Part shown: one piece after another, positions 56 through 59,804 of the stretch
How positions within the stretch are numbered: position 1 is the stretch's first letter
Layout: every line of letters starts with the position of its first letter
Assembly: GCA_028717245.1 (NCBI GenBank)
Contig: JAQUOD010000002.1
Location: 204,772-268,771, forward strand
Source of the DNA: Candidatus Omnitrophota bacterium
Lineage (GTDB): Bacteria; Omnitrophota; Gorgyraeia; Gygaellales; Profunditerraquicolaceae
DNA: 64,000 bases
Direction of reading: 5' to 3'
Notes under the pieces: model-generated
Seen by the model: only the letters and a program-made list of their open reading frames with translations
Told to the model about the DNA's origin: nothing
The model's database searches: none
Translations under genes and position numbers: made by a program

Positions 56-3000
56 ATGAAGCGTTGTGAGGCTGCTATCATGAAATTAATCATGGAACAG
101 AACGGGACTCTTTCTGATTGGGAGGTTTTTTATTATTACGGTTGGTATATGCGGATAAGGAAGAAGTCAGCAGCGGCGAGCAGATTTAGCGGTTCATCTT
201 TAAGAGGTCTCCCAAATATTGTTTTGGCGCTCGGCACAGGATTTATCGCCGCAATGCTTTTAAGAGCAAATGGCCATTCCGGTATTAATTGGTTGAATAT
301 TAGCGCTGGTTTACTATTAGCCGGATTGCCCGTTTATATCATGATAAGAGGTCTTAGAAAAATTTCCATTAACGATTTATCCCAATCCCTAAAAAAACTT
401 ACCCGCGATGATATAATAGGATTTATAATCTTGGTTGGTTACCTTATTGTATATGCTGCCATTGTTTACGCGGCATTTTGGCTTATGCAACTGACGGCTG
501 CTCCTTCTTTAGCCCCGCACTCAATGTTGCCCAATATGCCGTTTGGCCAGGCCTTACCCTTCACTATTTCAGATTTAACTGGTTTCTTCATTAGCGCCGC
601 TTTTTTGGTTGGGATGGCACGGGGTTCGATAGGCGGCGCAGGCCAGCGTAATATTATAAGGGAAAGTGGCAATGCCAAAAAGATAATGCCCGAAGACGAA
701 ATAAGGGCCTCTGTGACGAATTTATATGTATGGTTTGACATTCTTAAAGGAACGGATCCTAAGATATCAGCGGCTTTAAGTAAGATTTATTCTGCTTATC
801 AAGAATTAGATTTTAGTCAGAATAATCGGGCTAAATTAAATGAGTTAACAGAAGCAAAAGCGAGGCTTAAGGAAGGATTAGAGCAGCTCCGAGGGATTCT
901 TCTGGGGAGAGAAAATGAGCTTACAGGAGTTATGGCTAAACTACTGGAGAAACAGCGGGTAGCAAGTAAAGACGCACCAACAAGAATAGGAGAAATGAAG
1001 AGGGAGATTAAAGCAGCGCTTGCAAAACTGGAGAGCAAAAGCACTAATGCGCTTAGCCTCAATCCCTATGCATTTTCACTTATATTTTCCATTCTTGCGC
1101 CTTTTATGCCGGTTTTAGGCCCGCTTGTTAGCATTGCCGTGAACCAGATGTACTCTCTGCCGGCTTGTATATTTGTGATTGAGGCAATATTGAATAAAAC
1201 TCAAGCCAAACGCAAGCCCAAAGAAGATATGGTTAAAGAAACAGAAGATGAAAAATCCGAAAGGCTCAGGCAGGCAAAAATATATTATAAAGAAGGGCTT
1301 TATTATGCTCAGGCAGGGCTTACTGATTTCGAAAAGGGAAATGTAAAAGCAGCAAGGAGAAACTGGTTTACGGCGATACGAAACTTTAAGGAGGCAACTG
1401 ACTCAAGCTGGGAATATACCGAAGCTTATTATAATTGGGCATTAGTTTATTACAGATACTATAATACGTTTGTTAAGCAGCCATCGCCACGGGGGGTCTT
1501 CGCTAAAATTGCAGCAGCAATAAGAGGAGACGAAGAGCATAAAAAGGAAGTTTGGGAGGAATATTTATATGAGATTAAGTTTATCTTAGGATTGTTTCCA
1601 GAATTGCGGAAGAAGCTAGAGGGTAAGATTATTATACCGGATTTAGATTCAGGAGACATTTCACCGAGCCCATCTGGAGGTAATAATTCTCTAGCCCATG
1701 GTGGCGATGTTGGCAAGGCACAATTTAGCTTAGGGAGCGGTTCTGAAGCATCAGGAATAGAGTTGGTTACCGGTCGTGAACCTCGGGAGCAATATTACGG
1801 ACCAGTTCCTGACGGGGATCTATTTAGGGGCAGCACAAGAGCCAAGCATAAATTTGAGGATGGAATAACAAGAAGCAGCGGCAGAGCGCCAGGCAAGAAA
1901 ATCTATAAAAGCCAGATTATTAGAGATGCAATTAGAGATAGAATTCCTTGTTTCTTCCTGATGCTAGTGAAAAACATTGATTTTGCGGTACCGATAAAAA
2001 GGATAATCGTCCCCAGAGATATTGCGAATTTGGAATTAGAAGGGAAAACCCCTTTTGAAAAGAAAGTTATCAGGTTAAGCCATGATTTACTGAACCAACT
2101 AAAGAATCAACATAATATTGAGGTCTTGATTAAAGAAGGCGATGATTCTATTCTAGAACATGAAACTGAAGACTTTGGAATTACTTTAAACGGCGCAGAA
2201 GGAAGGTTAAGCCCGGAGAATTTTAAGGAGATCTCAAGAAAAACCGGAAGCCTTCTAGCTGGACTACATAAGGCAGGCGTAATCGCTTCGGATTCGCACC
2301 CCGCAAATTTTATCGTTAATACTGAAACGATGGAAGTAAGAAGAATAGATTTTGAGTGGGTTGACATATTTGATAAAGAGTTAGCCCGTGAGTTAACGCA
2401 AAAATATGAATTTTCCGAAGCAGAATTAAGAGGATTAGGTATCCATTCAACCAGAATACCCAGCAGTGAAATGACTAAAGAAATTCTTACTCTTATTTGG
2501 ACTGAAAAGGACAAGTCGAAAAATTTGCATAATAGTTTATTTATCTGGCCATTTGCCGGGGGGTATTTATCAGTCAAGCATGAGTTTGATGAATGGGAAG
2601 AAGACCTTGAGAGAATGCTGTATTATTTACTCTCATTTAGAGACAAGGAAGAAGGCAATTTGGGAGGCAAAGCAAATACAGAAGCCGAGCAGTATGGCAA
2701 AACAGTTCCTGAAAGTGAGCAGCCGGTAAAGGAAACAAGGCCTAATCCTGCCAGCTCAATAGAGGTGATAGAGGCAACCCCTAAATACCGCCAAGATATA
2801 ATCTCTCTCATACATAGCTCTTTCCCCGAGCTTGACAATGAAATGGAGAGGATCCTTCGGGATAATCGGGTGTTTGTGGCTTTGGTTAAAGTTAGGGAAG
2901 AATGGGAATTCGCCGGAGCGGTCCTGACCGCAATAAAGAGGGTTATCAATGAAAAAGGAGAAATTGTTCTTCCGGCTACTTATATTGATGCCTCAAAGCA

Positions 3001-6000
3001 CGAGAGTAATTTCACAGCGCAGCCCCATAGCTTTTGGTTGATTGATTTTGCTATCGCTGTTTCTCCGGAAATTAAAGTAAAAGGCATATCTGATGCTTTA
3101 ATCCAGGCTACGGATAAGTATACCGATGAGCAGGGATTAATGAGGCCAGATGCTGCCAGCCGCGCACGGGATGCAGGAAAGTTTAAAGATGCCCTTCTGC
3201 AGGAGCGGGCAAAGGCCCTTCCTGAAGCTAAAGCAAAAAACCTTTCTGGCCTTAACATAATGATACGTTACCTTATGACTACAACGCTAAACCCCAAAGG
3301 AGTGGTTAAAGATTCATTCGCAAAATATGCAGCAATGCCCAACGGTATGAGCCCGTTTTTGCTCTGGCTTAAGGAATCCAAACGCCTGGCAAGGTCAGAT
3401 GGCGTGGATGATAGCCCTTATGCCAATTTTGTTAACGTTATTTCCCCCCTCTTAGAAGAAATTGACAAACACTCCCCTAAAGACCTCGAAGGCTTCCTGA
3501 AAACTTATGATGATTTTGATTATTCCCGCCTTGCCCAGCCGGACGTGATTGAAGAATTTGGAAAACTTCTGCGTGACTTCATCAATGGTTCCTCCAGATA
3601 TGAAGACCAGATAATAGCCGGCCTGCATATGCGCCTGGGAGCCCATATCGGAAGGATAACCAAAAACAGCCTCCCCGGCCACCCCGAGACTTTAGATATG
3701 AACATCCATATGTTTTATCCAGAAAAAGTAAATGACAATATTCCACCGGCAGATAATCCGGTTTTGCCTGTACAAGGGGTGTCCCCAAATGGGACGTCCT
3801 CAGAAGCGCATGCAAGGAATATGATTCCTCCGCTTGTGTTGACTCTTTATTTTGCCAGGATGGCTGGTTTTGCTATGCCTTCTTTAGAATTATCTGCGAG
3901 CGAGATCGATCCGGTGATAGTTATACTTTTGCTTATGTTTTTATTTGTGATAAAAAAGGTAGTGGTGGAAGAGATTGATAAAAGGAGTGAAAAATTGAAT
4001 AGGGCCAGGATTGACAAGATACTCAATAGTAACGAAATAAAGGCAGATGATACAGTGGCAAAGCCCGTTATTAAAAACTATAATTATCCGGAAAGAATTA
4101 CTCCGCATAATGCTCCTATAGCAAAGGTCTTTAAAGAACCCTTGCCGCCTTCAGCCCGGTTTTATCCAAAGACAGAACCTTCATTAAGATTGATGGACTC
4201 TAAATATCAGAATATCGCAAGGGAGTTTAAAGAAGCCATTCAGAATAAACCTTTCCCAACTGAAGGTATGTTCCTTGAAATAGGCCACGGCGGGAATCTA
4301 TCTTCCCCGGGTTTTGCTATTAAATTTGGGCTTGAGCCTTGGGGCATAGATTTAGATAGGCATGCTAATGCCGATACGATAAATGATATTGTCGGACAGG
4401 CTGAAAATATCCTGCCTTTGATAAAAGATAATTCTTTTGATGTGATAGCTGTTATTGATACCTTTGGAATTATGACCAGAGAAAATAGTTTTTATAAAGC
4501 TCAACCCATAGATCCGGTATGGTTAATAATGCAAATAGCCCGGATATTGAAACCCGATGGTTATTTGGTTATCGCAGATTTTTCCGCAGATTTAGAAGAT
4601 TTGAAGTTAAAGTATGGGATGGAACTTAATAAATTAGCTGAAGGCGCAGGCCTTAAAGTTTTGAGATATCGCATTGAAGGCAGTAGGGCAATCTCTATTA
4701 TCTATAAGCCATCAGAATTATCTCCATTAGCCCCCCGCGTAGGAGCCGCTGGTTTGGAGATAGCGGAATTTAAAAAGCCGACAGAAATAGGGTTAGGTCA
4801 AAGGCCAAGTACTGCTGTTACCCTAGATGATGTTCAACTACCTTCTGTTATAGAAAAAGACCGTAAGGATGCAGCGTTAAGCAGCCGCTCAAGGATAGAA
4901 ATAGAAGAAGTGCCTATTCCTGATGCTATGGCAGAAGACGCCAGCAAGGACTCCTTTAGTTTTAAGGAATATATGGACGCTGCGTTATATAATCCTGGCT
5001 GGGGATTTTATGGCTCAGGAAGGGTGCAGTTTACGCGAGGCAAAGATTTCGAGACCTACCCTAAAATACTTTCTCCTGTATTCGGAGAGTTAGTCTGCGA
5101 ACAGGCTTTTAAGATGTGGAAAGGCATGCTGGCTGCAAAGACTATAAGCGAGGCAGAGGAATTTACAATAGTAGAATCTGGCGCAGGCGAAGCAGATTTA
5201 TCCTATGATTTATTATCCCACGCCGAAGAGTTGGCAAAATCGGATGAGCTTTGGAATATTTTCTACCGGCAGCTCGTATATATTAGTTTAGAGCGTTCGC
5301 CGAAATTAGTAAAAAGGCAGAAAGAGAAAAACGCAAAATTCAGTCCGAAATTTCGGGTTATAGAAGGGGATGCCCGCGATGTAGCTAAGCTTATCAAAAA
5401 ACCTATTAAAGGATTAATCCTTTCTAATGAACTGATGGATAATTTCGCTGTTTATAAGGTTAGATTTGAACCAGACGGCGCAACAAAGACTCCCTTAGCC
5501 ATTCCTTTAATCAGCGTTGAGCTCGCCAAGGAATTAAGCAAAAGAGGCATAATCCGAGAATTGGATTTAGCAATGAGAAACGAACAATTGAAGAAGGATT
5601 TTTATCTCCCTAACAAGAAAGGGAAACTTTATATATCTAAAAGCGATTTCTTAAAGATTAAGGCAGAATTAAGCAAGCAAGAATATAGACAGTTGGAAGA
5701 TAGCTTTGATACCCAGATAGATTTTGTTGAGGCGTATTTGGATATTAAATACTTCCCTGAATTATTCGATTATGTCCATAAGAACAGAAGGGAGCTATCT
5801 TTTGCTATAGCCAAGGAAGCAAAAGCAGTTACTGCTTATCTTAGCCCGGATGCGGTTAGGTTTATTCAGTCCGCAGCAGGAATTTTAGATAAAGGTTATA
5901 TCCTGACTATAGATTACGGAGCAAGTACGCAGGGACTCTTGAATCCAGAATACATAAAGCATCCGATAATGATGTATGGCCCTGTATCTGTACGCGATAT

Positions 6001-9000
6001 CTTCGATGCCAATCCTTATCATTTACCGGGAAAATGCGATATTACCGTAGGTGTAGATTTTACCTCTTTGGTAGAAACCGGCGAAAATGCGGGATTGAAA
6101 TTAAAATTCTATGGTGTTCAGGGGAATCTTGAGTCAGGGATAACCAATTTGTCTCATGATGAGGAATCGAAGAGCAGGATAGTAGCCCGCCGCCTTAAAA
6201 GAGAGTACCCTCAGGCGAAGGCTCCTGAAGGTTTGCAAGAGGGAATAAGAGGCCAGGTCGAAGATGACATAAGGAGTTTTAAAAAAGATTTTCTTGGTGG
6301 CAATAGCGTTAAAATGCTAATACAGCAGAAAGAAGGCACTGATGAACAGTATGAATACAAGATACCTTCCGTAGTATCTCTTGAAGAAATGAGTTTATTC
6401 GCCAGGAGAAAAATCCCGGCCAAGCAAAGGCCTTTATTCCTTGAGCCGCGGATTAACGCCGCGATATTTATCGATGATTTTTGTAATTTAGGTTTACCAG
6501 AAAAAATAGACGCAGACGTTTTAGTTAAAGCTATCCGCGCATCCGGCATATTGCTGATGCCAGATAATAAAGACAATAAAAAATTTATTAAGAAAGAACG
6601 CTTTGAACCTTACGAGTTTGCTTCAAATTCCTATCCAGCTTATCACTGGTTAGTTTTTGGAGGGCAATTGGAAGCTTGCATTGCAAATCAGGCGAGAGAG
6701 ATTATATCAGGGGTTAGCGAATGCCCTGCTAACACTAAAATGTGGATTACATTACCATTGAATGCCATCGGATGTTTTTCTGGTAGAGACGAAAGAAAGT
6801 ATGGTTTACCGAGATATTTAGCAAAGTACCTTGTAAAGGAATATAGTTCATTTGCCGAAGGCTTACGGCCAATAAAGGAACCTTATACGCAAATTGATAC
6901 TAAAGACGTAGAAATTAATTTCGGGGATTGGGCAATAGTAGAATTTGATCCATACTCTAATGCGTCGATTTTTCAAGAGAATATAGGGTTAACCATATTA
7001 GAGAACGGCCGAGAACTGTGTTGTATTAAACCTGATGGCCGAAGAATGGTAGTACTTAATTTTATCTCTAAAAAACCAGAAAATGTATTCAGTTTATTGC
7101 AACAGAGTAGCGCAATCAAACAAGCCGGACAAAAAGAGAGCATATCAGGAAATAACACCCTGCCGCAAGGCACGATTAACAAAAAAACCCTTAACCCTGC
7201 CTTAGGCCCCGGAACATATGATCCTCGAGATCTGGCAACTCTTCAGGGGCAAAACAGTAATTCTGGAAAAACAGGGTCAGATTCAATTTTTTCCTATATT
7301 CTCGCCCATGATTTTATGAGCCCTAATAAAGTGGGGTATATTCAGGCAATAAGAGCTATGTTACCGGTAAAGAATCAAAGGAGGAGGTGCCTTTATATTG
7401 CCTTAGGCGGAGATTATTCAACCAGCCAAATGGTATCGCAGGCCCTAGAAACTATTTGTGTGGATAGGCTTCCTTTTGAGCCTTTAATAACACTATCTAA
7501 AGAAGAGGCGGATTTATATAAAGCCGTGTATATCAAAGACAGGTATTATGCGAATTTTGCTTCTTCAGTCCAATCAGTTGAAGGCGCAGTATTAAGGCGC
7601 GTAGGCGCTAAAGAATATTTTCTTTGGGAATTGGAAATGATGGGAGCCCAAGATATAGAAATAAGTTTTGATACCGCCCTTAATGCCAATAAGATTAGTT
7701 TTATCCTCCCGGGCGAATCGATGCAAAAAAGCATAATTTATTTTAGTTTTGACGCCAGGAATATAGAAGCCTACCCTCAGGCTCTGCTCAACCTTATAAA
7801 AGAAGGATTAGATTCTTTTATTTTTAAAGCCAGCGACGGCGTGGTTTTACCTCTTCAGATCAAAGACATAATTACCAACTCCTTTGATCCGGAAGCTATG
7901 CTGTTTCTGGATAGCGAAGCTTCATTTAGCCACACTTATCTTGAAGAGATAGATGAGGCAAAAATGGGGCAAATCAGGAATTTTGAAAAAATGGGTTATG
8001 CCTTTGGATATGAAAAAGTTCGTTTATTAAGGCCTAAAAAGCCCGAAATCCCCTCCCTCCCCGCAGGTGGGATAGAGGTTGAGAAAAGAAAGACACGGCA
8101 GCATCATTCGAATGACATATATCAGGAACCGTCCCCGCTGCCGTCTCTGCTAGCTAAGAATAGAATAGAGGTTTACCTAGATGATATTGCCCCCAGATTT
8201 TTTAAATTAATGAGAGCTGAATTTTCAGATGATAACAGGCTTTGTCTTATTTCTTCCAGAATTACGGGTTTAGTCCTGGCAGATAAATTTGGGATTCCTA
8301 TAGATAACAAGAGCGCCAATAGGATGGAGGTAAGGTTATGCCCTTATTTTGATGATGGCGGGAAACGTTACCATCAGATGCTTATAATTTATCGCAATAA
8401 TAACCCATGGCTTTTTGTTTATCCTGTCCTGGGATTGTTCTATAGCGGCTTAGAAGGCAGGATAATCTGCAGGGATTATCAGAAATTAAGCGAGTACAAT
8501 TTTATGGACCAGGGAAGGACAAGCTGGGTTCTCGATGAGCAGTTACAACAAAGAATAGAAAGGGTAGCCCAAGAGATTGTAGGGGATGGAAATTTAGGCT
8601 ATGGCAGCATAGCGACAACACAGCTGGCACCTTTTGAGAAGATATCCAGGGCATTAAAAATAGAAAAACTGCTTAATGAAAACTTACGGCAGGAAGGATT
8701 AAATACTCCCATTAAACATGAAGGAACAAAGGGGCTTTTCTACGAATCGGATATTTCTGATGTGGTCAAGGCCTGTCAGGTAATAGGCCTTGAGGGTAAA
8801 AGAGGCATTGATTTAGGCGCAGGCGTTGGCCACGCAGTGTTTGCTATGGCAGTAGCCGGCCTTCGGGGAGTAGGCATAGAATGGGAAAACCATTTAATTG
8901 GTATTGGTAATGGCCTCTTAGATAACAAAGAATTGAAGAAACTCGTTGATACCAGCCGCGTTGACTTAAGGCAGGGCGATTTTATGCAGGAAGATTTAAG

Positions 9001-12000
9001 CCAATACGACATAATTTACTATTATTGGAATGGCGCAGGTTATGGCAATGAAAATAAAGCCCAGGATGCGCTTATGCAAAAGATTAAGCAAGAAATGAGG
9101 CCGGATACCCTGTTGATTATTTACAGAGGGCTTGATACGCTTTCCCTCCCGGGATTTGAAAGAAAAGATTACCCCGGAATTCCCGAGACGGTGAGAGTAT
9201 TTAGGAAAGCCGAGGATATACGCAGCGATTTAGATAGCCCTGATGCAGAAATTAGAAGCAAAGCCATAAGTACTTTGCTGCGCTCAGACGAATACACGGA
9301 TAAAGAAAAGACACTTTTATTATTAAAAAGAGTTATGCAGGACGATGATAAATCAGTACGCACAGAAGCAAGAAGGGCGCTTACTATTCTCTGGTATGTA
9401 ATTGAAGGAAGGCCGAATAATAATTTTGCTGAAGTCCTGCAAGATGTGGGGCAGGGGCTTGCAAAACCAGAACGCGAAACTTTATTAGATATTCTGGTAA
9501 ATTCATTCCTTAACCGGGAAAGCCGCTATGCGCTTAACCGCTTTTGTTTGGATACATTTATGAAAGAGAATCCTAAAGTAAAGATTAATATCGACGAACG
9601 AATTCTGGAAGCAGACAATGTTGCCCCATATCTTATAACCATTGCCGGGCAGCTTTCCGGAATAAATCAGGAGAGCCTGAATTTAGAAATTATATTTTTG
9701 GATAACGTAAATGCAATTGAGAACAGGATTATGGAATCAGAGATTACCTTGCGTAAATATGGGGAGAACGGGCCAAGGGAGATGTTGATTAATATAGCCG
9801 CATTTAAAGAAAAAGCAGGCTATTCTTCGCAGGAGAACGTTATTTTCGCCAAAAAGATTTCCGAGGTATTGAATCAGTGCATTAATAAAGATAGCTGTGA
9901 TTTCGCTCCGATTGACAATACCAAAGCGGCATTGGAGGGTTTTGTGCCTTTGGATGAAAGCTTTCTCTGGAAGATAAGCAATTTATATTGGCAGTTAATG
10001 GGGAAGGATTCTTTTAAAGACCCGTACGCAGATACTTCGTTTTTCCCTGAATTACCCACGCACTTGAGAAAGGTACCCAACGGTTTATATGTTTATCACA
10101 GTTTTGCTTCTGCCTGCGCGGATAAATTCTCTAAGTATCTTTGCGAATTAGAAAATAGAGGCGATTTACCCGGGAGGATTATTGTTCAAGAATGGGGCGT
10201 GGGGAATGCCGATTTTCCGGAAAAGTTCCTGGGCGCCCTAAAACGGCTAAGCGCAGAAAAAGTAAAACAGCAGGGAGGGACGGATTTTTACGGGAGGGTA
10301 ACTTATGTAATAGGCGATATATCCCTTAAGATGTTAGAGAATATACGGCAGGCAGAATGGTACCCCCAGCATAAAGAGAAGATAGAATTTTCCGTAATGG
10401 ATGCCGTAAACCCTCCCCAGGCTTATCGGGGCAGGACTCTATTATTGATAAATAGCTATCTCTATTGCGTATTGCCGGCAAAAGTGATTGCGAAGAAAGA
10501 GGGCCGTTTTTACGAGATGTGCGTAAGGGCGTATCTGAATAAAGACATACGTATTAAAACCCGGGAGGGAAAGGACGTTTCAGCCGAAGAATTCACAGAG
10601 ATGCTGGTAAAAAATGATATACAGGCGCTTTCAAAACTCAACCCGTCTTTCTGGTATGCGTTGAATTATGAAGAGGTATATAAAGAATTTGATCCTCGGA
10701 GTAATAGCTGGGGTGATTACATAGCATGGATAACGCAAGGTAAAGATAATTGCCGGTTCATAATTAATAATCAGGCGTTAGAGAGCTTAACAAAGTCGCT
10801 TGATTTATTAGATGAAAAAAGAGGGATGATTTGGATATTTGAATTGACTTCGCCGGATGCATTAAATAACCCCCTTGCCGGCCCGATGAGTTTTGGCCCT
10901 ACGCTGGCTACACCTGTAAATACATCCTTATTGGAATACGCAATTAATAAAAACCGCGGTTGGAAAATCTCGGTTTCTCCTTCAACTATGTTTTTGCCGG
11001 AAGATACGAAGCGCGCCCAAAAATATACCTATATTGAAGTAGAAAAGAACAAATCCCCGCATATAGATACAAAAAATACGGCCTTATGTTTCAATCCCTT
11101 CATATTTTCGCTTCTTATCCCTTCCCTTATGCCCCTTATTATATTTTTGGGCGTGGCGGTATTTCCCTCTGCTCCTTTCATACCCGCGTGGCTGCCTGTA
11201 ATCAAAACAATGGTTACTAGCGCTGTAGTAAAGATTCAAAATATAGTTAGTAAGATAAAGGATAGATTCATACAAATAAAGCCAGTCCTTTATTTAGATA
11301 TATTAATATTCTTTTTTACAATCGGCATATTTATTCCTCTCTATTTCTTCCGAGATAAGATAGGAGAATTAGGAGCCTATGGCTATTTTGTGGCGTTCTG
11401 TATCTCAATACTCACTAACCTGACGGTATTTTTCCCTGTTCCAGGCATTGTAGCAACAGGTGCTTTAGCAACTGTGTTTAACCCTTTTTGGATTGGTATC
11501 GTGGTTGGCATAGGGGCGACTATCGGACAGATTACAAGTTATGGTTTTGGTTATAGCGGTAAATCCATAATTAATGGAAATCGTATCTACCAAAAACTGA
11601 TGAATTGGATACAGGGTTTGCTAATATACAAAAAAATAAATAACTGGGTAGAGAAACGGCCAAACCTGTCTATTTTTATTAGTTACTTTTTTCCTATTCC
11701 GGGTGTATCTGATACTGTCGGAGCAATAGCCGGTAGCGCAAAGTACCCTTTTTGGAAATACTTTATCTTTTGTATGTTAGGCAATATCCCTAAACATATC
11801 TTTTATGCTTATTTTAGCGCCTGGGGATTAAATTTATTTTTCCCGGATATTTTTAAATTGGGTATCTCCGGAAATCCTTTAATCTCTTTACCTCTTCTGG
11901 CAATAGCAAACTTACCTATAATGGGATATGATGATTTTGAAGGAGAAGAAGGAGAAAACCACAGAAAGAGGCCAAAGAATAAAAAAAGAAGAGAGGAAGA

Positions 12001-14530
12001 CGATATCGAAGCCCGGCTTAAGAATGTGGTGAGATTTACAGATGTGCAAGAAGCTGTTTCTAAAGCGCCAGTTAAAGAAAGATCTGTATCTGCGCAGGCA
12101 GTGGTTGTAGAGAATTCAGCAGAGGGAAGAAAAATTACTCCCAAGCAAGCCAAACCGGTTACAAAAATCAAGGCCACGGGAGTTGATAGGTTAAGGCAGA
12201 TTTCCGTTTTGCTTGAAAGAGGATTGGCGTCCGATGGGTTTACGGGATTTCAAAGAGAGGCTTATGAGATTAGCGAAGAAATGGCAGCAGAGCAAGGCAA
12301 TGTTGCCTTAAAACAACTCTACGATTTAATTACAAGGCCGGATTTACACCAAGGCGTAAACAGGTGGATAATCGGAGGAATAAGTAATTATTTTAAGCGT
12401 CCGAGCGTGAGCTTAAAGGATATTATGCTTTTACTTGCCGACGAATTTTGGCAAGATAACGCGGGAACAGGAAATATGATAACCGGCGTAATGATAACGG
12501 CGGTTAAAAGGCGATTACCCGAATATAAGGGCGCTGCAGGGATCGTCGAATTACACGTCCTGCTCCACGATAAGAATATTCGTAAGTATAAAGGCCTGCG
12601 CGCCTTGTTGTACAATCAAATCAGGGGCGATTTAAATAATATAATTTCCCTCAACGAATTAATTGAATTATATTTAAGCCAGAGATGGTTCGAGGGCGTG
12701 GGCAGGAATATGGTATTTCCCAGAATAGAAGAATTGATCGGTAAAGGCGCGTTAGCGCGGGTTGATTTTTTTAAGCTGGCTAACTGGTATATGGACCCTT
12801 TTCTTGATTCGGAAAGAAATGAAAAATCATTTTGTGAAGAACTGAATAGAAGGATTAGGGGCTTAGATTTAAATACAATAGATTCATACCTCGTTGATTC
12901 CGGCATCCCTAGAGAAGTAAAAGAATTAATACGGAAAATAAGAGGTGATGAACTTAAGGGTTTCTACGAAGAAAAAGAAAGGGAAAAGAAAGAGGCAGAT
13001 AGAAAACAAAAGATAGGGGGTCATTTGGCTTGCGTAGAGAGATTAAGCGCGGAGGGTAAATTAGAGGAATCGTCGGCAGAATTACGGGTACTACTTGAAG
13101 TTGAGCCTGAAGATGAAGGAGCGTTGTTAGAGTTTATGCTGCAACGGTGCAGCAACGCACAAGTCTTAAATAATTATATCCGTATCAGGAAAGATTTTAT
13201 AATAGATAAAATTCTGGAGGCCAAAGAAGGCAGGCCAGATTATTTCTATTGTTTGCTTGAAGTCATGCAAAAAGTTTACGGCCGGCAGGATATAGACAAA
13301 AAGGTCGCAGAGGAATTTAAAGCTCAGGCGCAAGAAATAATAAAATCCATAATTGACAGGGACATCAAAAAAATAAACCATATCTTTACGCTTCCTGCCA
13401 GCAGAGAGGTAAAACTTGGCATGCGCGATGAGATTCTGGGAGGCCTTTTTCTAAAGACGGATGATTTAGTAAAACGATTCCTGGATACCTTATCTGAAAA
13501 TGAAATCCCTGTGTTTCTGGAGTCAATGTCAGGAGCCGTCGCTTTTTATGATTTATGCGCGCGCAAGGATATAAGTAATGCCATAAGGGCGCAGCTTAGG
13601 CAGATAGTAGATTCAGCCATTGATTTTATATACTTTAACCGTTCGTTTGACTTGCCGCGCAATACTATGCTGTTTATTAAATGCCTGCTTAGTAAGGAAG
13701 AGTTTTCTCAGACTGTATTCAGCGTTCAGGCAGAGTTGATGCCTTATTTACAAGAAGACAATCAGGATAAACTGATGGGATTTGTGATGGATAAAAATAT
13801 TTCTTATAAGGAAAAGAAGGCAATTTTATTCCGGTTAGCGATGTTGTGGACAGAGTTTTTGAATAAAGACGGAAGCCCAGGGCAGATAGCTAATCTGTGC
13901 GATAATGCTGACCCGCTGGTTAGGGCGTATCTTTATTATGCCTTGTCTTTGATACGCAGCCCTAAATATGACGAGGCGAAGGCGATACAACAAGAGCTTG
14001 CGCGTAAAATAGCGGGTCTGGTTAAGGCAGGACAGATAAATAGAAAAGCGTTGATGGATATTCTTTATGAACTTCAGCCGGTAGATAGTCGTAACAGGTT
14101 GTTCTTAATCTACTGTATAGTGGCATCTTTAGCGGTTGAGAGAAAGATTTCCGCGTTCATTCCCAAGGAAAATCCGGGCGGTAAGATGTTAACAAAAGAT
14201 AGCAGTAAGTTGATAAAAGAAGCGTTGGCCGAAGCAGCAGAGAGCGATTTTGTAAAGAGCGATAGCTGGCATCAAGAATTGATTGAAGACGCGTTATGGT
14301 TGCTTGAGCAGGATGATAATTTAAAGAAACATGCCCTGAGGAATATAATTGAATTGATTACAGCTGCGGGGAGCTCAAGTAATATTTGGGCACTCTATAG
14401 GCGTAAGATTGACGCTTTGAAGAAGAAAAGAAAGGGCACTCTTGGCAATGTAGTTACTATTCCGGGCAAACAGGAACCGTTTACAAGGCAACAGCGTTCG
14501 CCTGGATGGGATGGTTTTATTTATAAGTAG
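56..14530 (+). CDS. giant multidomain membrane protein (4,824 aa): N-terminal TM bundle and coiled coil, two atypical kinase-like modules, Methyltransf_11-like SAM MTase, two MidA/NDUFAF7-like MTase modules, DOT1-like MTase motif, HEAT-like repeats, embedded DedA/VTT-like multi-TM block, helical C-terminal third
   Basis: Single uninterrupted 14.5-kb frame in an AT-rich genome; the other five frames show only ORFs under 160 aa. ATG at 56, but this frame has no stop back to base 2, so the true start may lie upstream of the window. Motifs were read directly from the translation (see findings). Confidence 0.85.
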   Translation: MKRCEAAIMKLIMEQNGTLSDWEVFYYYGWYMRIRKKSAAASRFSGSSLRGLPNIVLALGTGFIAAMLLRANGHSGINWLNISAGLLLAGLPVYIMIRGLRKISINDLSQSLKKLTRDDIIGFIILVGYLIVYAAIVYAAFWLMQLTAAPSLAPHSMLPNMPFGQALPFTISDLTGFFISAAFLVGMARGSIGGAGQRNIIRESGNAKKIMPEDEIRASVTNLYVWFDILKGTDPKISAALSKIYSAYQELDFSQNNRAKLNELTEAKARLKEGLEQLRGILLGRENELTGVMAKLLEKQRVASKDAPTRIGEMKREIKAALAKLESKSTNALSLNPYAFSLIFSILAPFMPVLGPLVSIAVNQMYSLPACIFVIEAILNKTQAKRKPKEDMVKETEDEKSERLRQAKIYYKEGLYYAQAGLTDFEKGNVKAARRNWFTAIRNFKEATDSSWEYTEAYYNWALVYYRYYNTFVKQPSPRGVFAKIAAAIRGDEEHKKEVWEEYLYEIKFILGLFPELRKKLEGKIIIPDLDSGDISPSPSGGNNSLAHGGDVGKAQFSLGSGSEASGIELVTGREPREQYYGPVPDGDLFRGSTRAKHKFEDGITRSSGRAPGKKIYKSQIIRDAIRDRIPCFFLMLVKNIDFAVPIKRIIVPRDIANLELEGKTPFEKKVIRLSHDLLNQLKNQHNIEVLIKEGDDSILEHETEDFGITLNGAEGRLSPENFKEISRKTGSLLAGLHKAGVIASDSHPANFIVNTETMEVRRIDFEWVDIFDKELARELTQKYEFSEAELRGLGIHSTRIPSSEMTKEILTLIWTEKDKSKNLHNSLFIWPFAGGYLSVKHEFDEWEEDLERMLYYLLSFRDKEEGNLGGKANTEAEQYGKTVPESEQPVKETRPNPASSIEVIEATPKYRQDIISLIHSSFPELDNEMERILRDNRVFVALVKVREEWEFAGAVLTAIKRVINEKGEIVLPATYIDASKHESNFTAQPHSFWLIDFAIAVSPEIKVKGISDALIQATDKYTDEQGLMRPDAASRARDAGKFKDALLQERAKALPEAKAKNLSGLNIMIRYLMTTTLNPKGVVKDSFAKYAAMPNGMSPFLLWLKESKRLARSDGVDDSPYANFVNVISPLLEEIDKHSPKDLEGFLKTYDDFDYSRLAQPDVIEEFGKLLRDFINGSSRYEDQIIAGLHMRLGAHIGRITKNSLPGHPETLDMNIHMFYPEKVNDNIPPADNPVLPVQGVSPNGTSSEAHARNMIPPLVLTLYFARMAGFAMPSLELSASEIDPVIVILLLMFLFVIKKVVVEEIDKRSEKLNRARIDKILNSNEIKADDTVAKPVIKNYNYPERITPHNAPIAKVFKEPLPPSARFYPKTEPSLRLMDSKYQNIAREFKEAIQNKPFPTEGMFLEIGHGGNLSSPGFAIKFGLEPWGIDLDRHANADTINDIVGQAENILPLIKDNSFDVIAVIDTFGIMTRENSFYKAQPIDPVWLIMQIARILKPDGYLVIADFSADLEDLKLKYGMELNKLAEGAGLKVLRYRIEGSRAISIIYKPSELSPLAPRVGAAGLEIAEFKKPTEIGLGQRPSTAVTLDDVQLPSVIEKDRKDAALSSRSRIEIEEVPIPDAMAEDASKDSFSFKEYMDAALYNPGWGFYGSGRVQFTRGKDFETYPKILSPVFGELVCEQAFKMWKGMLAAKTISEAEEFTIVESGAGEADLSYDLLSHAEELAKSDELWNIFYRQLVYISLERSPKLVKRQKEKNAKFSPKFRVIEGDARDVAKLIKKPIKGLILSNELMDNFAVYKVRFEPDGATKTPLAIPLISVELAKELSKRGIIRELDLAMRNEQLKKDFYLPNKKGKLYISKSDFLKIKAELSKQEYRQLEDSFDTQIDFVEAYLDIKYFPELFDYVHKNRRELSFAIAKEAKAVTAYLSPDAVRFIQSAAGILDKGYILTIDYGASTQGLLNPEYIKHPIMMYGPVSVRDIFDANPYHLPGKCDITVGVDFTSLVETGENAGLKLKFYGVQGNLESGITNLSHDEESKSRIVARRLKREYPQAKAPEGLQEGIRGQVEDDIRSFKKDFLGGNSVKMLIQQKEGTDEQYEYKIPSVVSLEEMSLFARRKIPAKQRPLFLEPRINAAIFIDDFCNLGLPEKIDADVLVKAIRASGILLMPDNKDNKKFIKKERFEPYEFASNSYPAYHWLVFGGQLEACIANQAREIISGVSECPANTKMWITLPLNAIGCFSGRDERKYGLPRYLAKYLVKEYSSFAEGLRPIKEPYTQIDTKDVEINFGDWAIVEFDPYSNASIFQENIGLTILENGRELCCIKPDGRRMVVLNFISKKPENVFSLLQQSSAIKQAGQKESISGNNTLPQGTINKKTLNPALGPGTYDPRDLATLQGQNSNSGKTGSDSIFSYILAHDFMSPNKVGYIQAIRAMLPVKNQRRRCLYIALGGDYSTSQMVSQALETICVDRLPFEPLITLSKEEADLYKAVYIKDRYYANFASSVQSVEGAVLRRVGAKEYFLWELEMMGAQDIEISFDTALNANKISFILPGESMQKSIIYFSFDARNIEAYPQALLNLIKEGLDSFIFKASDGVVLPLQIKDIITNSFDPEAMLFLDSEASFSHTYLEEIDEAKMGQIRNFEKMGYAFGYEKVRLLRPKKPEIPSLPAGGIEVEKRKTRQHHSNDIYQEPSPLPSLLAKNRIEVYLDDIAPRFFKLMRAEFSDDNRLCLISSRITGLVLADKFGIPIDNKSANRMEVRLCPYFDDGGKRYHQMLIIYRNNNPWLFVYPVLGLFYSGLEGRIICRDYQKLSEYNFMDQGRTSWVLDEQLQQRIERVAQEIVGDGNLGYGSIATTQLAPFEKISRALKIEKLLNENLRQEGLNTPIKHEGTKGLFYESDISDVVKACQVIGLEGKRGIDLGAGVGHAVFAMAVAGLRGVGIEWENHLIGIGNGLLDNKELKKLVDTSRVDLRQGDFMQEDLSQYDIIYYYWNGAGYGNENKAQDALMQKIKQEMRPDTLLIIYRGLDTLSLPGFERKDYPGIPETVRVFRKAEDIRSDLDSPDAEIRSKAISTLLRSDEYTDKEKTLLLLKRVMQDDDKSVRTEARRALTILWYVIEGRPNNNFAEVLQDVGQGLAKPERETLLDILVNSFLNRESRYALNRFCLDTFMKENPKVKINIDERILEADNVAPYLITIAGQLSGINQESLNLEIIFLDNVNAIENRIMESEITLRKYGENGPREMLINIAAFKEKAGYSSQENVIFAKKISEVLNQCINKDSCDFAPIDNTKAALEGFVPLDESFLWKISNLYWQLMGKDSFKDPYADTSFFPELPTHLRKVPNGLYVYHSFASACADKFSKYLCELENRGDLPGRIIVQEWGVGNADFPEKFLGALKRLSAEKVKQQGGTDFYGRVTYVIGDISLKMLENIRQAEWYPQHKEKIEFSVMDAVNPPQAYRGRTLLLINSYLYCVLPAKVIAKKEGRFYEMCVRAYLNKDIRIKTREGKDVSAEEFTEMLVKNDIQALSKLNPSFWYALNYEEVYKEFDPRSNSWGDYIAWITQGKDNCRFIINNQALESLTKSLDLLDEKRGMIWIFELTSPDALNNPLAGPMSFGPTLATPVNTSLLEYAINKNRGWKISVSPSTMFLPEDTKRAQKYTYIEVEKNKSPHIDTKNTALCFNPFIFSLLIPSLMPLIIFLGVAVFPSAPFIPAWLPVIKTMVTSAVVKIQNIVSKIKDRFIQIKPVLYLDILIFFFTIGIFIPLYFFRDKIGELGAYGYFVAFCISILTNLTVFFPVPGIVATGALATVFNPFWIGIVVGIGATIGQITSYGFGYSGKSIINGNRIYQKLMNWIQGLLIYKKINNWVEKRPNLSIFISYFFPIPGVSDTVGAIAGSAKYPFWKYFIFCMLGNIPKHIFYAYFSAWGLNLFFPDIFKLGISGNPLISLPLLAIANLPIMGYDDFEGEEGENHRKRPKNKKRREEDDIEARLKNVVRFTDVQEAVSKAPVKERSVSAQAVVVENSAEGRKITPKQAKPVTKIKATGVDRLRQISVLLERGLASDGFTGFQREAYEISEEMAAEQGNVALKQLYDLITRPDLHQGVNRWIIGGISNYFKRPSVSLKDIMLLLADEFWQDNAGTGNMITGVMITAVKRRLPEYKGAAGIVELHVLLHDKNIRKYKGLRALLYNQIRGDLNNIISLNELIELYLSQRWFEGVGRNMVFPRIEELIGKGALARVDFFKLANWYMDPFLDSERNEKSFCEELNRRIRGLDLNTIDSYLVDSGIPREVKELIRKIRGDELKGFYEEKEREKKEADRKQKIGGHLACVERLSAEGKLEESSAELRVLLEVEPEDEGALLEFMLQRCSNAQVLNNYIRIRKDFIIDKILEAKEGRPDYFYCLLEVMQKVYGRQDIDKKVAEEFKAQAQEIIKSIIDRDIKKINHIFTLPASREVKLGMRDEILGGLFLKTDDLVKRFLDTLSENEIPVFLESMSGAVAFYDLCARKDISNAIRAQLRQIVDSAIDFIYFNRSFDLPRNTMLFIKCLLSKEEFSQTVFSVQAELMPYLQEDNQDKLMGFVMDKNISYKEKKAILFRLAMLWTEFLNKDGSPGQIANLCDNADPLVRAYLYYALSLIRSPKYDEAKAIQQELARKIAGLVKAGQINRKALMDILYELQPVDSRNRLFLIYCIVASLAVERKISAFIPKENPGGKMLTKDSSKLIKEALAEAAESDFVKSDSWHQELIEDALWLLEQDDNLKKHALRNIIELITAAGSSSNIWALYRRKIDALKKKRKGTLGNVVTIPGKQEPFTRQQRSPGWDGFIYK

Positions 14531-14604: not shown

Positions 14605-15294
14605 GTGAAAGATAGAAGACGCAGTATCCGCTGGCAGATAAATCAACAGGCAAAGGTGAAATTAGAGGGCGCCTATGCCTTTATCCAATGTTTTATTAAG
14701 GATATCAATTTTACGGGCCTGCAGATTTCTCTCCGTATGAAGTTGCCGGAAGATACATTTTTAAAGTTTAACCTGGTTTTATCTGAAGAGGCTACTTTAG
14801 ATATAGAGGCATGGGTAGTTTGGCATAAAAGGAGAGATGATTTTAATGTCTACGGCCTTCGTTTTACTCAGATAAATGAAGAAAACAGGGGGGAAATCTA
14901 TAAATTTCTCTATAAATATTTCCCTGAGGAGGTGGTTAAAAGATGGGGACAAAAAACAGCAGTTAATACAGGAGGCGAGACTATGCAAGACAAGAGGATT
15001 TTTGAGAGGTTTCCCGCGAGTTTACCTTTAAGATTCATCGACTTAAGCGTAAATAAAGAGAGCCAGGCGCAGACACAGGATATCAGCGCTAAAGGGATTG
15101 GGCTAATGACAGATAAAGAGCTTAGCCCGCAAACGCCTTTAGAGATGTGGCTGGATATCCCTGACCACCGCGAGCCGCTTTATACCCGGGGAGAAGTGGC
15201 CTGGTCTAAGCTATTGGGGCCCGATAAATACAGGGTAGGAGTTAATTTAGAAAGGGCGGACTTAATGGGTATAGCGCGGATATTAAGGTCATAA
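14605..15294 (+). CDS. tandem PilZ-domain protein (c-di-GMP receptor-like)
   Basis: Two repeats of the PilZ signature: RRRSIRW ... DINFTGLQI, and KRIFERF ... DISAKGIGL. GTG start, with AAAAAGG upstream. Confidence 0.7.
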   Translation: MKDRRRSIRWQINQQAKVKLEGAYAFIQCFIKDINFTGLQISLRMKLPEDTFLKFNLVLSEEATLDIEAWVVWHKRRDDFNVYGLRFTQINEENRGEIYKFLYKYFPEEVVKRWGQKTAVNTGGETMQDKRIFERFPASLPLRFIDLSVNKESQAQTQDISAKGIGLMTDKELSPQTPLEMWLDIPDHREPLYTRGEVAWSKLLGPDKYRVGVNLERADLMGIARILRS

Positions 15295-15564: not shown

Positions 15565-15906
15565 ATGGAGGACCGCAGGGTGTTCGCCCGGATAAATACC
15601 AGTTTTCCTGTAAGATTCTTAGACCCCACTCGCGGGATAGAGGGCCGGGCAGAGACGGTGGACATTAGCGCTAATGGCTTGGGTTTAGTTACTCAAGAAA
15701 ACTTATCGTCCAGGACGCCTTTAGAGATTTGGTTGGACATTCCTGACCAACATGAGCCGCTGTATACCCGGGGGAATGTGGTCTGGTCACAGGCCTCTTC
15801 CGATGCAGGGCAGCAGCGCGTAGGCATACGTTTGGAAAAAGCCGAACTCATGGGCCTGGCGCGCGTATTATGGATGCGGAAACAAGCAGAGGATAGGTTT
15901 AATTGA
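15565..15906 (+). CDS. single PilZ-domain protein, paralog of the C-terminal half of the upstream tandem PilZ protein
   Basis: RVFARI ... DISANGLGL motif. Roughly half the residues are identical to residues 130-229 of the upstream protein. RBS GGAAGGAGAG. Confidence 0.7.
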   Translation: MEDRRVFARINTSFPVRFLDPTRGIEGRAETVDISANGLGLVTQENLSSRTPLEIWLDIPDQHEPLYTRGNVVWSQASSDAGQQRVGIRLEKAELMGLARVLWMRKQAEDRFN

Positions 15907-58409: not shown

Positions 58410-59804
58410 GTGCCTATAACCATAAAATTTTTAGGCGGAGTAAGGACCGTTACGGGCTCAAGCCACTTAGCCTCAACAGATAAGGCCGAGGTCCTTATTG
58501 ATGCCGGGCTCTTCCATGGGCATCGCGATGCCTTTTATCGGGTGAATACTACTTTCAACTATAATCCGCGCAAAATAAATGCCCTGGTTTTATCCCACGC
58601 CCACATTGACCATTGCGGCAACATACCCAGCTTGATAAAGCAGGGCCTGCGCTGCAGGATATATACTACATCTGCTACCCGGGATTTAGCCAGGTTGATG
58701 CTGGAAGATTCAGGCAAAATCCAGGAAGAAGATGTCCGTTATGTCAATAAAATCAATAAAAGGCTGGGGTTGCCTTTACGCAAACCTCTTTACACCCGCA
58801 AAGAAGCATTAAAAGCCATGTCCAGATTCAGGGCCATTTCTTATGCGCAAAAATTTTGCGTGGCAGGAGATATCTTTGTTACTTTTTATGACGCCGGGCA
58901 CATTTTAGGTTCAAGCATTATCGTCCTGGATATAAAAGACGGCGCAAAGGCCGTGAGGTTAGGTTATGCCGTGGACTTAGGCAGGAAGAATTTGCCTTTG
59001 CTTAATGACCCGGTAGTGCCGCCGGGGTTAGATTATTTGATTCTGGAGAGCACTTACGGCGGCAGGCTCCATGCGCCCATAGAGCAGGCAAGGGCCAGGC
59101 TCAAAGATGCGATTAACGGCACTGTGGGGCGTAAAGGAAAAATCCTTATTCCCGCCTTTACCCTTGAACGCACGCAAGAAGTCATCTATTTTTTAAACGA
59201 ACTCTTAAAAGAGAAAGCTATAGCGCCTATACCCGTGTATGTGGATAGCCCTCTGGCCCTGGGTATAACCGATTTATTCAAATACCACTCTTCTTACCTG
59301 AATGAACAGACCCGTCAGGATATGCGTCAGGGTAATAATCCCTTTGAATTCCTGAACCTTAAATTTATCCGCGACCAGAATGAATCAAAGGCATTGAATA
59401 ACGATAAGCGGCCGATGATTATCATTGCCGGTTCGGGTATGTGCGAATCCGGGAGGATCCTGCACCACTTAAAGAACAATATCGAGGATTCCCGCAATAC
59501 CATTTTGGTCGTAGGTTATATGGCAGCCGATACCCTGGGTAAAAAAATTGTAGATAAGGCGCGTTTTGTGCATATATTCGGGGTGGAATATGAACTCAAT
59601 GCCGAGGTGATAGTCATTAATGCCTTCTCCGGCCATGCCGATAAAAACGGGTTAGTGGATTTTGTTTCGCGCTGCCTTCCTTTAAAGCGGATATTTTTAG
59701 TCCACGCTGACCCCGGCCAATCTCAGGCCCTATTTGAGATACTTACCCAACAGGGGCTGGCTGCTTATCTTCCCGAAAAGAACGAAGAAATCTTGCTTAA
59801 TTAA
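58410..59804 (+). CDS. beta-CASP family MBL-fold hydrolase (putative RNA-processing nuclease)
   Basis: MBL motif HAHIDHCG, beta-CASP motifs downstream; GTG start. Confidence 0.6.
   Translation: MPITIKFLGGVRTVTGSSHLASTDKAEVLIDAGLFHGHRDAFYRVNTTFNYNPRKINALVLSHAHIDHCGNIPSLIKQGLRCRIYTTSATRDLARLMLEDSGKIQEEDVRYVNKINKRLGLPLRKPLYTRKEALKAMSRFRAISYAQKFCVAGDIFVTFYDAGHILGSSIIVLDIKDGAKAVRLGYAVDLGRKNLPLLNDPVVPPGLDYLILESTYGGRLHAPIEQARARLKDAINGTVGRKGKILIPAFTLERTQEVIYFLNELLKEKAIAPIPVYVDSPLALGITDLFKYHSSYLNEQTRQDMRQGNNPFEFLNLKFIRDQNESKALNNDKRPMIIIAGSGMCESGRILHHLKNNIEDSRNTILVVGYMAADTLGKKIVDKARFVHIFGVEYELNAEVIVINAFSGHADKNGLVDFVSRCLPLKRIFLVHADPGQSQALFEILTQQGLAAYLPEKNEEILLN

Follow-up and report, generated by a model that had tools for sequence, protein, structure and literature searches.

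A question raised by one locus of Candidatus Omnitrophota bacterium is what kind of methyltransferase lies within the giant protein that it encodes. The locus lies in a 64,000-nucleotide stretch of contig JAQUOD010000002.1 (assembly GCA_028717245.1, positions 204,772 to 268,771 of the forward strand), hereafter the window. According to the list of open reading frames (ORFs) and their translation, the giant ORF runs uninterrupted on the plus strand from 56 to 14530 and encodes a multi-domain, membrane-anchored protein of 4,824 aa. An earlier, sequence-only reading had proposed that this protein contains a DOT1-like methyltransferase motif followed by HEAT-like repeats, and the methyltransferase peptide that it quoted, GIDLGAGVGHAVFAMAVAGLRGVGIEWENHLIGIGN...VDLRQGDFMQEDLSQYDIIYYYW, is present in the ORF (aa 2917-2991, nt ~8804-9028). 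The evidence assembled here points instead to a minimal (about 165 aa) protein-lysine N-methyltransferase module dependent on S-adenosylmethionine (SAM), of aKMT/ATPSc-KMT-like type and probably catalytically competent, carried within the membrane-anchored giant; a probability of about 0.6 is given to this reading. The fold and family placement of the core are held with high confidence, and lysine as the methyl acceptor, argued by analogy with relatives, is modestly favoured.

The core was delimited at 8702..9220 on the plus strand (aa 2883-3055) by HMMER, AlphaFold2, Foldseek, profile search and hhalign, as a compact seven-beta-strand (7BS) SAM methyltransferase of aKMT / ATPSc-KMT / DOT1-related type. 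It begins about 90 nt upstream of the start given in the sequence-only reading, roughly at nt 8702-8732, at the N-terminal loop GLFYES (aa 2893-2898; 8732..8749, plus strand). Based on hhalign columns and family tabulation, this loop is the equivalent of motif X, with VYGE in DOT1, YVPT in aKMT and G-x-F-x-P-S in the domain family as its counterparts. The subsequent motifs follow on the same strand. Motif I, the glycine-rich SAM-binding loop DLGAGVG (aa 2919-2925; 8810..8830), was read directly from the DNA. Motif II, G-I-E (aa 2940-2942; 8873..8881), aligns with GVE of DOT1L and carries at the end of strand 2 the acidic residue expected to contact the SAM ribose, while motif III, G-D-F-M (aa 2974-2977; 8975..8986), aligns with RGDFL of DOT1L and GNFF of aKMT. 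Strand 4 and its loop, YDIIYYYWNG (aa 2984-2993; 9005..9034), are placed by hhalign opposite VIFVNNFAFG of DOT1L, and this aromatic cluster, which replaces DOT1 motif IV (NNFAF), would line the substrate channel.

AlphaFold2 modelling of the 173-aa core with a 54-sequence alignment reached a predicted local distance difference test score (pLDDT) of 92.7 and a predicted template modelling score of 0.89. The model consists of a seven-stranded Rossmann-type sheet, with strands at core residues 34-38, 55-60, 87-91, 104-108, 137-141, 152-155 and 164-169, preceded by a small N-terminal hairpin. Searching with this model, Foldseek returned 1,424 methyltransferase-type matches in the PDB at E<=1e-3, and all the top ones were methyltransferases. 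The predicted fold is that of a class I (seven-beta-strand) SAM-dependent methyltransferase, and its hallmarks are in place: motif I, rich in glycine, follows strand 1, and strand 2 ends in an acidic residue (E2942). Together with the homologues described next, these results lift the methyltransferase signal well above chance.

To which family the core belongs can be followed through its homologues. An exhaustive HMMER scan of 1.84 billion representatives recovered 147 homologous clusters at E<=1e-3, of which 29 reached 1e-10 or better; its best match and closest homologue, P0001 (homologous proteins are cited here by running number), was found at E=1e-53 with 55% identity. A word-indexed homologue search with a 300-aa query covering the methyltransferase and the HEAT-like region gave no match at E<=1e-3, a GTDB genome scan with the same query gave no relative, no entry identical to the giant protein turned up in an exact-sequence look-up, and NCBIfam gave no match on the methyltransferase core. 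By re-scanning the homologous proteins, 157 domain copies were found at domain E<1e-5, including 57 in proteins of at least 1,000 aa and 84 in free-standing proteins of less than 400 aa; more than 20 homologous proteins match the core in two or three places. All three giant homologues with names (P0001, P0002 and P0090) are proteins from Omnitrophota metagenome-assembled genomes (MAGs), and standalone members come from other lineages, such as Armatimonadota, Patescibacteria and a eukaryotic transcriptome. Judged from these sequence comparisons, the aKMT-like core is a recurring module of Omnitrophota giant proteins. The rarity of DOT1-like domains in bacteria, as assumed in the sequence-only reading, is borne out in that the family is small, but not in its distribution, which spans several phyla and many giant proteins.

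The family motifs were defined from alignment A1, which comprises 54 homologous sequences and is numbered along the 173-aa core. The consensus reads G-x-F-x-P-S ... DLGSGDGRVV ... GIE-x-D ... GDFF ... YDVI(Y/F)YY ... K-L-x-x-E-[ML]-K-P-G, with strand 4 following Y-D-[VI]-[IL]-[YF]-Y-[YF] and D103 nearly invariant. All invariant or nearly invariant residues are kept in the window copy, namely G11, D37, L38, G39, G41, G43, G58, E60, D93, D103 and K127, which correspond to aa 2893, 2919-2921, 2923, 2925, 2940, 2942, 2975, 2985 and 3009 of the giant protein. E60 (E2942) was found to be invariant, occurring in 54/54 sequences of A1 and in 141/141 tabulated copies (57 in giants and 84 standalone). 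A separate observation concerns the free-standing members of ~250 aa (P0007, P0016, P0026, P0065, P0076 and others), in which an N-terminal hydrophobic segment and a conserved pre-domain (..IQRECLRAYPPELLAEM..) precede the core. This layout recalls that of FAM173B, with its transmembrane helix, pre-methyltransferase domain and methyltransferase domain, and by this analogy these proteins may be bacterial counterparts of FAM173B.

Placement of the family among characterized methyltransferases was obtained with the family profile. Against PDB sequences, the profile matched 5BXY from Salinibacter ruber at 1.5e-17, Sulfolobus islandicus aKMT at 4.4e-17 and 3.3e-15, and 9NE1 at 1.1e-12, followed by the generic methyltransferase 1VE3 (6.6e-10), human DOT1L entries (1.6-3e-9), further generic methyltransferases (2e-8 and weaker) and yeast Dot1p (about 3e-4). 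With hhalign, the profile scored 98.9% against the aKMT fragment (E=1e-17), 98.85% against animal ATPSc-KMT (E=4e-17; the 142 aligned columns extend to the C-terminal strand, V-x-x-Y-[RQ]) and 97.8% against the 9NE1 fragment (E=9e-13), while the Methyltransf_11 domain of the giant itself, used as a control, scored 4% (E=0.011). The name ATPSc-KMT was borne by a family-profile match in a search of 5.8 billion proteins; this protein is assigned to Pfam PF27912, a family that none of the Pfam scans made here returned. Altogether, matches to 5BXY, aKMT and ATPSc-KMT are stronger than those to DOT1L by 7-8 orders of magnitude. The entry 9NE1 was deposited as a bacterial DOT1L methyltransferase and is probably LpDot1. 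In a single-sequence phmmer search of the PDB with the window copy, only 5BXY (0.005) and CypM (0.006) were found, and no DOT1; the aKMT and DOT1 relationships are therefore visible only with an alignment profile.

Structural comparison gave a similar order. The sequence-only reading had called for structure prediction, and the AlphaFold2 and Foldseek results confirm a 7BS methyltransferase fold while placing aKMT first (5FA8 at 2.7e-10 and 5FAD at 1.6e-9) and DOT1L and Dot1p at ranks 33-35. Only 5FA8 and 5FAD outscore every generic Foldseek match. The template modelling scores (TM-scores, normalised by query/target length) were highest in both normalisations for 5JWJ (0.67/0.71), 5BXY (0.66/0.73) and 9NE1 (0.67/0.58), and the target-normalised score was 0.66-0.73 for aKMT and 5BXY compared with 0.30-0.35 for DOT1L and Dot1p.

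The literature on these relatives provides the basis for the proposed activity. aKMT4 has been described as a "KMT4/Dot1 family catalytic core" that has no substrate-recognition domains and methylates many proteins (PMC4639711). FAM173B (ATPSc-KMT) and ANT-KMT (FAM173A) are lysine methyltransferases and distant aKMT homologues, membrane-tethered and derived from aKMT-like ancestors (PMC9006661). Furthermore, LpDot1 is a DOT1-like lysine methyltransferase of Legionella with non-histone targets (bioRxiv 10.64898/2026.01.11.698932). Every one of the biochemically characterised closest relatives (aKMT, ATPSc-KMT, LpDot1 and DOT1L) methylates protein lysines.

Compared with aKMT/aKMT4 (5FA8, 5FAD, 5JWJ) and the bacterial homologue 5BXY, which are its best structural and sequence matches, the window core shares a 7BS core of ~160 aa with no appended recognition domain, and the motif order aromatic-x-P-(S/T), DLGxGxG, G-[IV]-E and G-[DN]-F-F. 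Like the aKMT/FAM173 group in general, it is a minimal core (about 150-170 aa) that has neither insertions nor a substrate-recognition domain. Identity in the structural alignments is only 16-21%, however, and aKMT is a free-standing protein of 161 aa whereas the window core is embedded in a 4,824-aa membrane protein. Strand 4 reads YDIIYYYW in the window copy and ATVVTMFLL in aKMT, and where aKMT has GDGR and YVPT the window copy has GVGH and FYES. ATPSc-KMT and ANT-KMT share whole-core hhalign similarity, determined for ATPSc-KMT and including the C-terminal strand, but are eukaryotic mitochondrial enzymes with one transmembrane helix, a "pre-MTase" domain and single known substrates. No such pre-domain lies upstream of the window core, although some standalone bacterial members have one.

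The evolutionary behaviour of the core was revealed by another Omnitrophota MAG contig (locus L007), in which a giant gene, two PilZ genes and a solute-binding protein (SBP) gene occur in the same order as in the window, with the PilZ genes at L007 4441-5559. P0001 is the C-terminal 1,417 aa of this giant gene, which is cut by the contig end (L007 19-4272). When the giant protein was compared with P0001 by BLASTP, only the methyltransferase core aligned, with 54% identity over aa 2866-3054 (window 8651-9217); the rest of P0001, including the ~1,200 aa after the core, gave no alignment to the giant protein even at E<=10. Other giants likewise share only isolated domains with the window giant, and collinear homology between them was consequently rejected. 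The methyltransferase core thus behaves as a conserved island in fast-diverging or shuffled giant genes, a pattern that appears to fit domain shuffling, or else rapid divergence in which purifying selection acts on this module.

A plausible mechanism can be outlined for such a module. SAM would be held by the DLGAGVG loop (aa 2919-2925), by E2942 at the ribose and by D2975/F2976 at the adenine, and the substrate lysine would enter with the GLFYES loop on one side and the aromatic end of strand 4 (Y2988-Y-Y-W) on the other. The methyl group could then pass to the epsilon-amine of this lysine by direct bimolecular nucleophilic (SN2) transfer. With no recognition domain in the core, as in aKMT, specificity may come from tethering within the giant protein, possibly with help from the two HEAT-like repeats that follow. 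The giant protein would be anchored in the inner membrane, with the core as one of several enzyme domains along the chain, and candidate substrates are the giant protein itself or neighbouring proteins in the cytoplasm or close to the membrane. A more specialized version, in which recurring aKMT/DOT1-related modules are effector-like lysine methyltransferases acting on proteins of an attached host or prey cell, as LpDot1 of Legionella does, is highly speculative and regarded as very improbable; in that case the giant protein would be the scaffold that delivers or anchors the modules, with adjacent repeats, the HEAT-like pair among them, as target adaptors.

Several findings weigh against the protein-lysine proposal. 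The activity and substrate put forward for the family are extrapolated from relatives. In Foldseek, small-molecule and RNA methyltransferases span E-values of 5.6e-9 to 8e-8, a range that also takes in 5JWJ, 5BXY and 9NE1 (6e-9 to 5e-8), so the acceptor cannot be read from the fold alone. In addition, 5BXY was deposited as an "RNA methyltransferase", and no publication was found for it. The window copy itself departs from its family at two functional-looking positions, where GDGR of motif I has become GVGH and the P of the N-terminal loop has become E. The HEAT-like repeats are sub-threshold on Pfam, none was detected by Pfam beside the core in nine relatives (P0002, P0004, P0005, P0009, P0013, P0015, P0019, P0021 and P0030), and the sequence after the core in the closest homologue P0001 is unrelated. 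Moreover, the topology of the giant protein is a hydropathy count only, and published topology predictions place many domains of Omnitrophota giants outside the cell (bioRxiv 10.1101/2023.11.21.568195).

How far the DOT1 designation can be carried depends on profile scores and on motifs. On Pfam DOT1 (PF08123), with its gathering threshold of 23 bits, the window copy scored between 15.0 bits (E=0.018) and 16.5 bits (E=0.0065) over profile positions 31-114, which is below threshold, and the generic Methyltransf_31 scored it higher (21-22 bits). For the homologue set, DOT1 is the best-matching specific Pfam family, with 37/54 members at E<0.01 and a best value of 2.3e-9; the relatives range over 17-36 bits, and P0002 (27.3), P0005 (30.3), P0013 (30.0), P0030 (28.9) and P0097 (35.9 bits) exceed the threshold. 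Calibration on the same profile gave 18.8 bits for ATPSc-KMT, 26.2 for the 5BXY fragment, 36.1 for the aKMT fragment and 46.1 for the 9NE1 fragment, and because of these scores a weak DOT1 match is considered normal for the whole aKMT/FAM173 group. In DOT1 enzymes, SAM is bound by motifs I (DLGSGxG), II (GxE) and III (F(V/L)), while motifs X, IV and VIII form the lysine channel; the remaining signatures are VYGE for motif X (the activation loop, with an essential E), NNF(L/A)F for IV, Gx6K for VI and VSWT for VIII (PMC10951340). In the hhalign columns, motifs I to III are found in the window copy as DLGAGVG, GIE and DFM, though these are also common to many non-DOT1 methyltransferases. Motif X reads LFYE, in which the E is kept, as a residue special to the window copy, and G137 is replaced by Y. 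The position of motif IV is occupied by YWN followed by a gap (in the family, YDVI(Y/F)YY-x-x-G), and motif VI is D-x6-R rather than Gx6K. The match stops at DOT1L 273, with no VSWT or W-containing equivalent of motif VIII after it.

It is judged very unlikely on this evidence that the core is a true member of the DOT1 (KMT4) family, equivalent in bacteria to the H3K79 methyltransferase, with the same lysine channel and perhaps directed at histone-like or host chromatin proteins. DOT1 is the only specific Pfam family that the window copy matches, the family profile scores 96.6% against human DOT1L by hhalign (E=6e-10, DOT1L residues 125-273, in a sequence identical to 1NW3), and bacterial DOT1-like enzymes exist, namely LpDot1 and Rv2067c (the latter as cited in bioRxiv 10.64898/2026.01.11.698932). 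The core also resembles DOT1/KMT4 (human DOT1L, yeast Dot1p, LpDot1) in its class I fold, in the order and spacing of motifs I (DxGxGxG), II (GxE) and III (DF), in the hhalign matches to DOT1L and the 9NE1 fragment, and in the several family members above the PF08123 threshold. However, a similarly sub-threshold score is obtained for ATPSc-KMT, which is not a DOT1, and aKMT, 5BXY and ATPSc-KMT are nearer to the family by a factor of 10^7. No match was found to the N-terminal helical domain of DOT1 or to its nucleosome-, DNA- and ubiquitin-binding elements, since the profile covers only DOT1L 125-273, and motifs IV and VIII are missing. The resemblance of the motif string is itself misleading: DLGAGVGH (in DLGAGVGHAV) resembles DLGSGVGQ (in DLGSGVGQVV) of DOT1, and the E of FYES aligns with that of YGET, the catalytically essential E138 of DOT1L, but both are substitutions special to the window copy and absent from its 55%-identical homologue P0001. 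The family and P0001 instead carry DLG(S/A)GDGR and F-x-P-S, like aKMT and ATPSc-KMT, in keeping with the aKMT-group signatures DLGxGDGR and (Y/F)-x-P-(T/S). "DOT1-like" would therefore be right as a broad relationship and wrong as family membership or as a DOT1-type lysine channel. The motif claim of the sequence-only reading survives as a distant DOT1 relationship with motifs I-III, and gives way to aKMT as the closer relative. What that reading had itself envisaged as the opposite result, generic Rossmann folds as best hits without the DOT1-specific motif arrangement, describes half of the outcome: motifs I-III and a remote DOT1 similarity are present, while in the PDB profile search DOT1L (~2e-9) only equals the top generic methyltransferases (1VE3, for example), and channel motifs IV and VIII are missing.

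A less probable explanation, which nevertheless deserves some weight, is that the acceptor is not protein but RNA, the head group of a membrane lipid, or a small metabolite on which adjacent domains of the giant act. It would accord with the deposited name of the top sequence match, 5BXY, with the small-molecule N-/O-methyltransferases (MtfA, CcbJ, PhzM, UbiG) that lie near 5JWJ/5BXY in Foldseek E-values, with the match of the family profile to phosphoethanolamine N-methyltransferases at ~5e-8, and with the VTT/DedA-type membrane domain in the same protein. However, no publication in support of the 5BXY name was found, generic matches in the profile search trail aKMT and 5BXY by at least 7 orders of magnitude, and protein lysines are the common target of the characterised relatives. 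A degenerate, catalytically dead fold, retained in the giant scaffold only for structure or SAM sensing, could be suspected from the two deviations from consensus (GVGH for GDGR and E for P in the N-terminal loop), from the fast evolution and domain shuffling of Omnitrophota giant proteins, and from another domain of this giant, Methyltransf_11-like, in which motif I is degraded. It is considered improbable, as the G-x-G-x-G loop, E2942, D2975, D2985 and K3009 are all intact and the core alone stays alignable (54% identity) between syntenic giant genes, which suggests purifying selection beyond bulk structure.

Turning to the second part of the sequence-only claim, two HEAT-like helical repeats follow the core at 9221..9400 on the plus strand (aa 3056-3115), recognized by Pfam HEAT_2 and a signature scan, with signatures DSPDAEIRSKAISTLL and DDDKSVRTEARRAL 36 residues apart. 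The peptide quoted as HEAT/PBS-lyase-like is present (aa 3060-3109, nt 9233-9382) and has a weak HEAT_2 similarity, but it stays below the cut-off, and Pfam found none beside the core in the nine relatives scanned. HEAT_2 (PF13646) matched aa 3059-3109 at E=6e-4 to 3e-3, with 18-20.5 bits against a cut-off of 27.7, and HEAT (PF02985) reached 12.9 bits against 23.5. The signature D-x-D-x-x-[VI]-R-x-x-A, a pattern devised after the sequence had been seen, occurs twice in this pair and a third time at aa 4616, with a shuffled expectation of 0.09. In a single-sequence AlphaFold2 model of the methyltransferase with the following 145 aa, the HEAT-like region was all-helical with a pLDDT of only 55-67; the mean pLDDT of 45.7 makes this model unusable for assessing the HEAT solenoid or its packing against the methyltransferase. 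A phmmer search of the PDB with the HEAT-like region gave no meaningful match. The repeats are plausibly real, because HEAT repeats are typical content of Omnitrophota giants. The signature scan placed a HEAT-like signature near only 2/157 domain copies, and P0019 has a similar DLDSPDTEAR right after its core. A conserved methyltransferase-then-HEAT architecture was rejected on this count and on the Pfam result in the nine relatives; as far as the sequences indicate, the HEAT-like repeats are not a conserved partner of the methyltransferase.

The wider architecture of the giant protein was examined by running Pfam on the whole protein and on ten pieces of it. At least three SAM-methyltransferase-type folds were recognized by Pfam and family analysis. 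A Methyltransf_11/31 domain lies at aa 1400-1517, and a Methyltransf_28 (PF02636) domain at aa 1679-2016 (window 5090-6103, plus strand; E=3e-28), which belongs to the family of the NDUFAF7 methyltransferase (PMC9006661). A VTT_dom (VTT/DedA-type, PF09335) was found at aa 3796-3921 (window 11441-11818, plus strand; 1.8e-12), embedded in the C-terminal cluster of transmembrane helices. Beyond the methyltransferases, VTT and the weak HEAT_2, these Pfam searches found very little, and no glycosyltransferase, NUDIX, peptidase or SecA-like domain was detected. By hydropathy count, hydrophobic segments occur at aa 51-185, 342-375, 1286-1304 and 3682-3821. The aKMT-like core sits in the long soluble segment between the hydrophobic stretches at aa 1286-1304 and from 3682 onward, together with the two other SAM methyltransferase domains, and because three SAM-dependent domains are found there this segment is inferred to face the cytoplasm.

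Further segments of the giant protein gave observations of their own. The Methyltransf_11-like domain (window 4274-4573) has a degraded motif I, LEIGHGGN. At window 2195-2380, a weak protein-kinase-like match (Pkinase E=0.02) surrounds DSHPANFIV...RIDFEW, which resembles the catalytic loop and DFG-like motif of a small kinase fold. The segment at aa 3351-3649 (window 10106-11002) is homologous to the N-terminus of the 7,631-aa protein P0106 (29% identity, 2e-24) and includes the string EWGVGNADF, similar in appearance to motif I of methyltransferases; a fourth methyltransferase was considered here, but with no Methyltransf_28 similarity and no Pfam or PDB match the segment was left unassigned. 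Just upstream of the core, aa 2704-2898 (window 8165-8749) are homologous to aa 1425-1624 of the giant P0032 (28% identity, 5e-9), and since the P0032 counterpart is not adjacent to a methyltransferase this segment appears to be an independent module.

The surroundings of the giant gene place it in a known genomic setting. A PilZ-domain gene follows directly at 14605..15294 (plus strand; Pfam PilZ 4.4e-24, two stretches), and a second one is found at 15565..15906 (plus strand; 5.2e-12). PilZ domains are receptors of cyclic diguanosine monophosphate (c-di-GMP). Located 3' of this pair are genes for a sugar ABC transporter (a sugar-binding SBP and two permeases), for a GPH symporter and for a GH2-like protein. 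Elsewhere in the window, NrdJ, MnmG, PhoB, GlnA, GdhA and LpxB genes mark a Gram-negative bacterial chromosome, and MnmG is 80%, 70% and 69% identical to that of three Candidatus Omnitrophota MAGs, the 80% value belonging to UBA1562. Omnitrophota giant-gene loci have been described as a giant gene with PilZ genes, a solute-binding protein, permeases or transporters and a glycoside hydrolase (West-Roberts et al., 2023, bioRxiv 10.1101/2023.11.21.568195), and the window locus fits this pattern in host phylum, anchoring, PilZ, transporter and glycoside hydrolase. In the "Archaeovorin" class, methyltransferases are consistent content and HEAT repeats are the most frequent domain (West-Roberts et al., bioRxiv 10.1101/2023.11.21.568195); methyltransferase and HEAT content in Omnitrophota giants is also listed by Nielsen and Lui (2026, bioRxiv 10.64898/2026.06.07.730766). 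The window giant resembles these Archaeovorin-type proteins as a transmembrane-anchored multi-enzyme polypeptide with methyltransferase and HEAT content in an Omnitrophota host, with PilZ immediately 3' and then a solute-binding protein, permeases and a glycoside hydrolase. It differs in its 4,824 aa, far under the published cut-offs of 10,000-30,000 aa, and in the glycosyltransferase, NUDIX, peptidase and SecA-like domains that were not detected here.

These results refine the annotation of a protein class in which most sequence has no assigned function. Earlier work has described giant proteins of this class, how their loci are built, their content of methyltransferases and HEAT repeats and the "5BXY-like" fold, already drawn for published Omnitrophota giant-gene loci, so the gain is incremental. 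The lone published glimpse of the module labels it "RNA methyltransferase", after an uncharacterised structural-genomics entry. DOT1 is unmentioned in both Omnitrophota giant preprints, neither of which was searched for aKMT or lysine methyltransferase. New here are the placement of this fold with aKMT, ATPSc-KMT and DOT1, a family definition with its motifs, and the recognition of the core as a conserved island. Placement with aKMT, ATPSc-KMT and, distantly, DOT1 leads to a testable hypothesis, namely that Omnitrophota giants carry protein-lysine methyltransferase activity, often in several copies. It also calls for caution, as a DOT1-looking motif string that arose by substitutions in a single copy is no marker of a bacterial histone-type DOT1.

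Far from the giant gene, a beta-CASP metallo-beta-lactamase ribonuclease gene was observed at window 58410-59804. Its best NCBIfam match is the "type VII CRISPR-associated Cas14" model (5.7e-127), with 424 bits, far below the 800-bit cut-off, and the gene more likely encodes an ordinary aCPSF1/RNase J-like enzyme.

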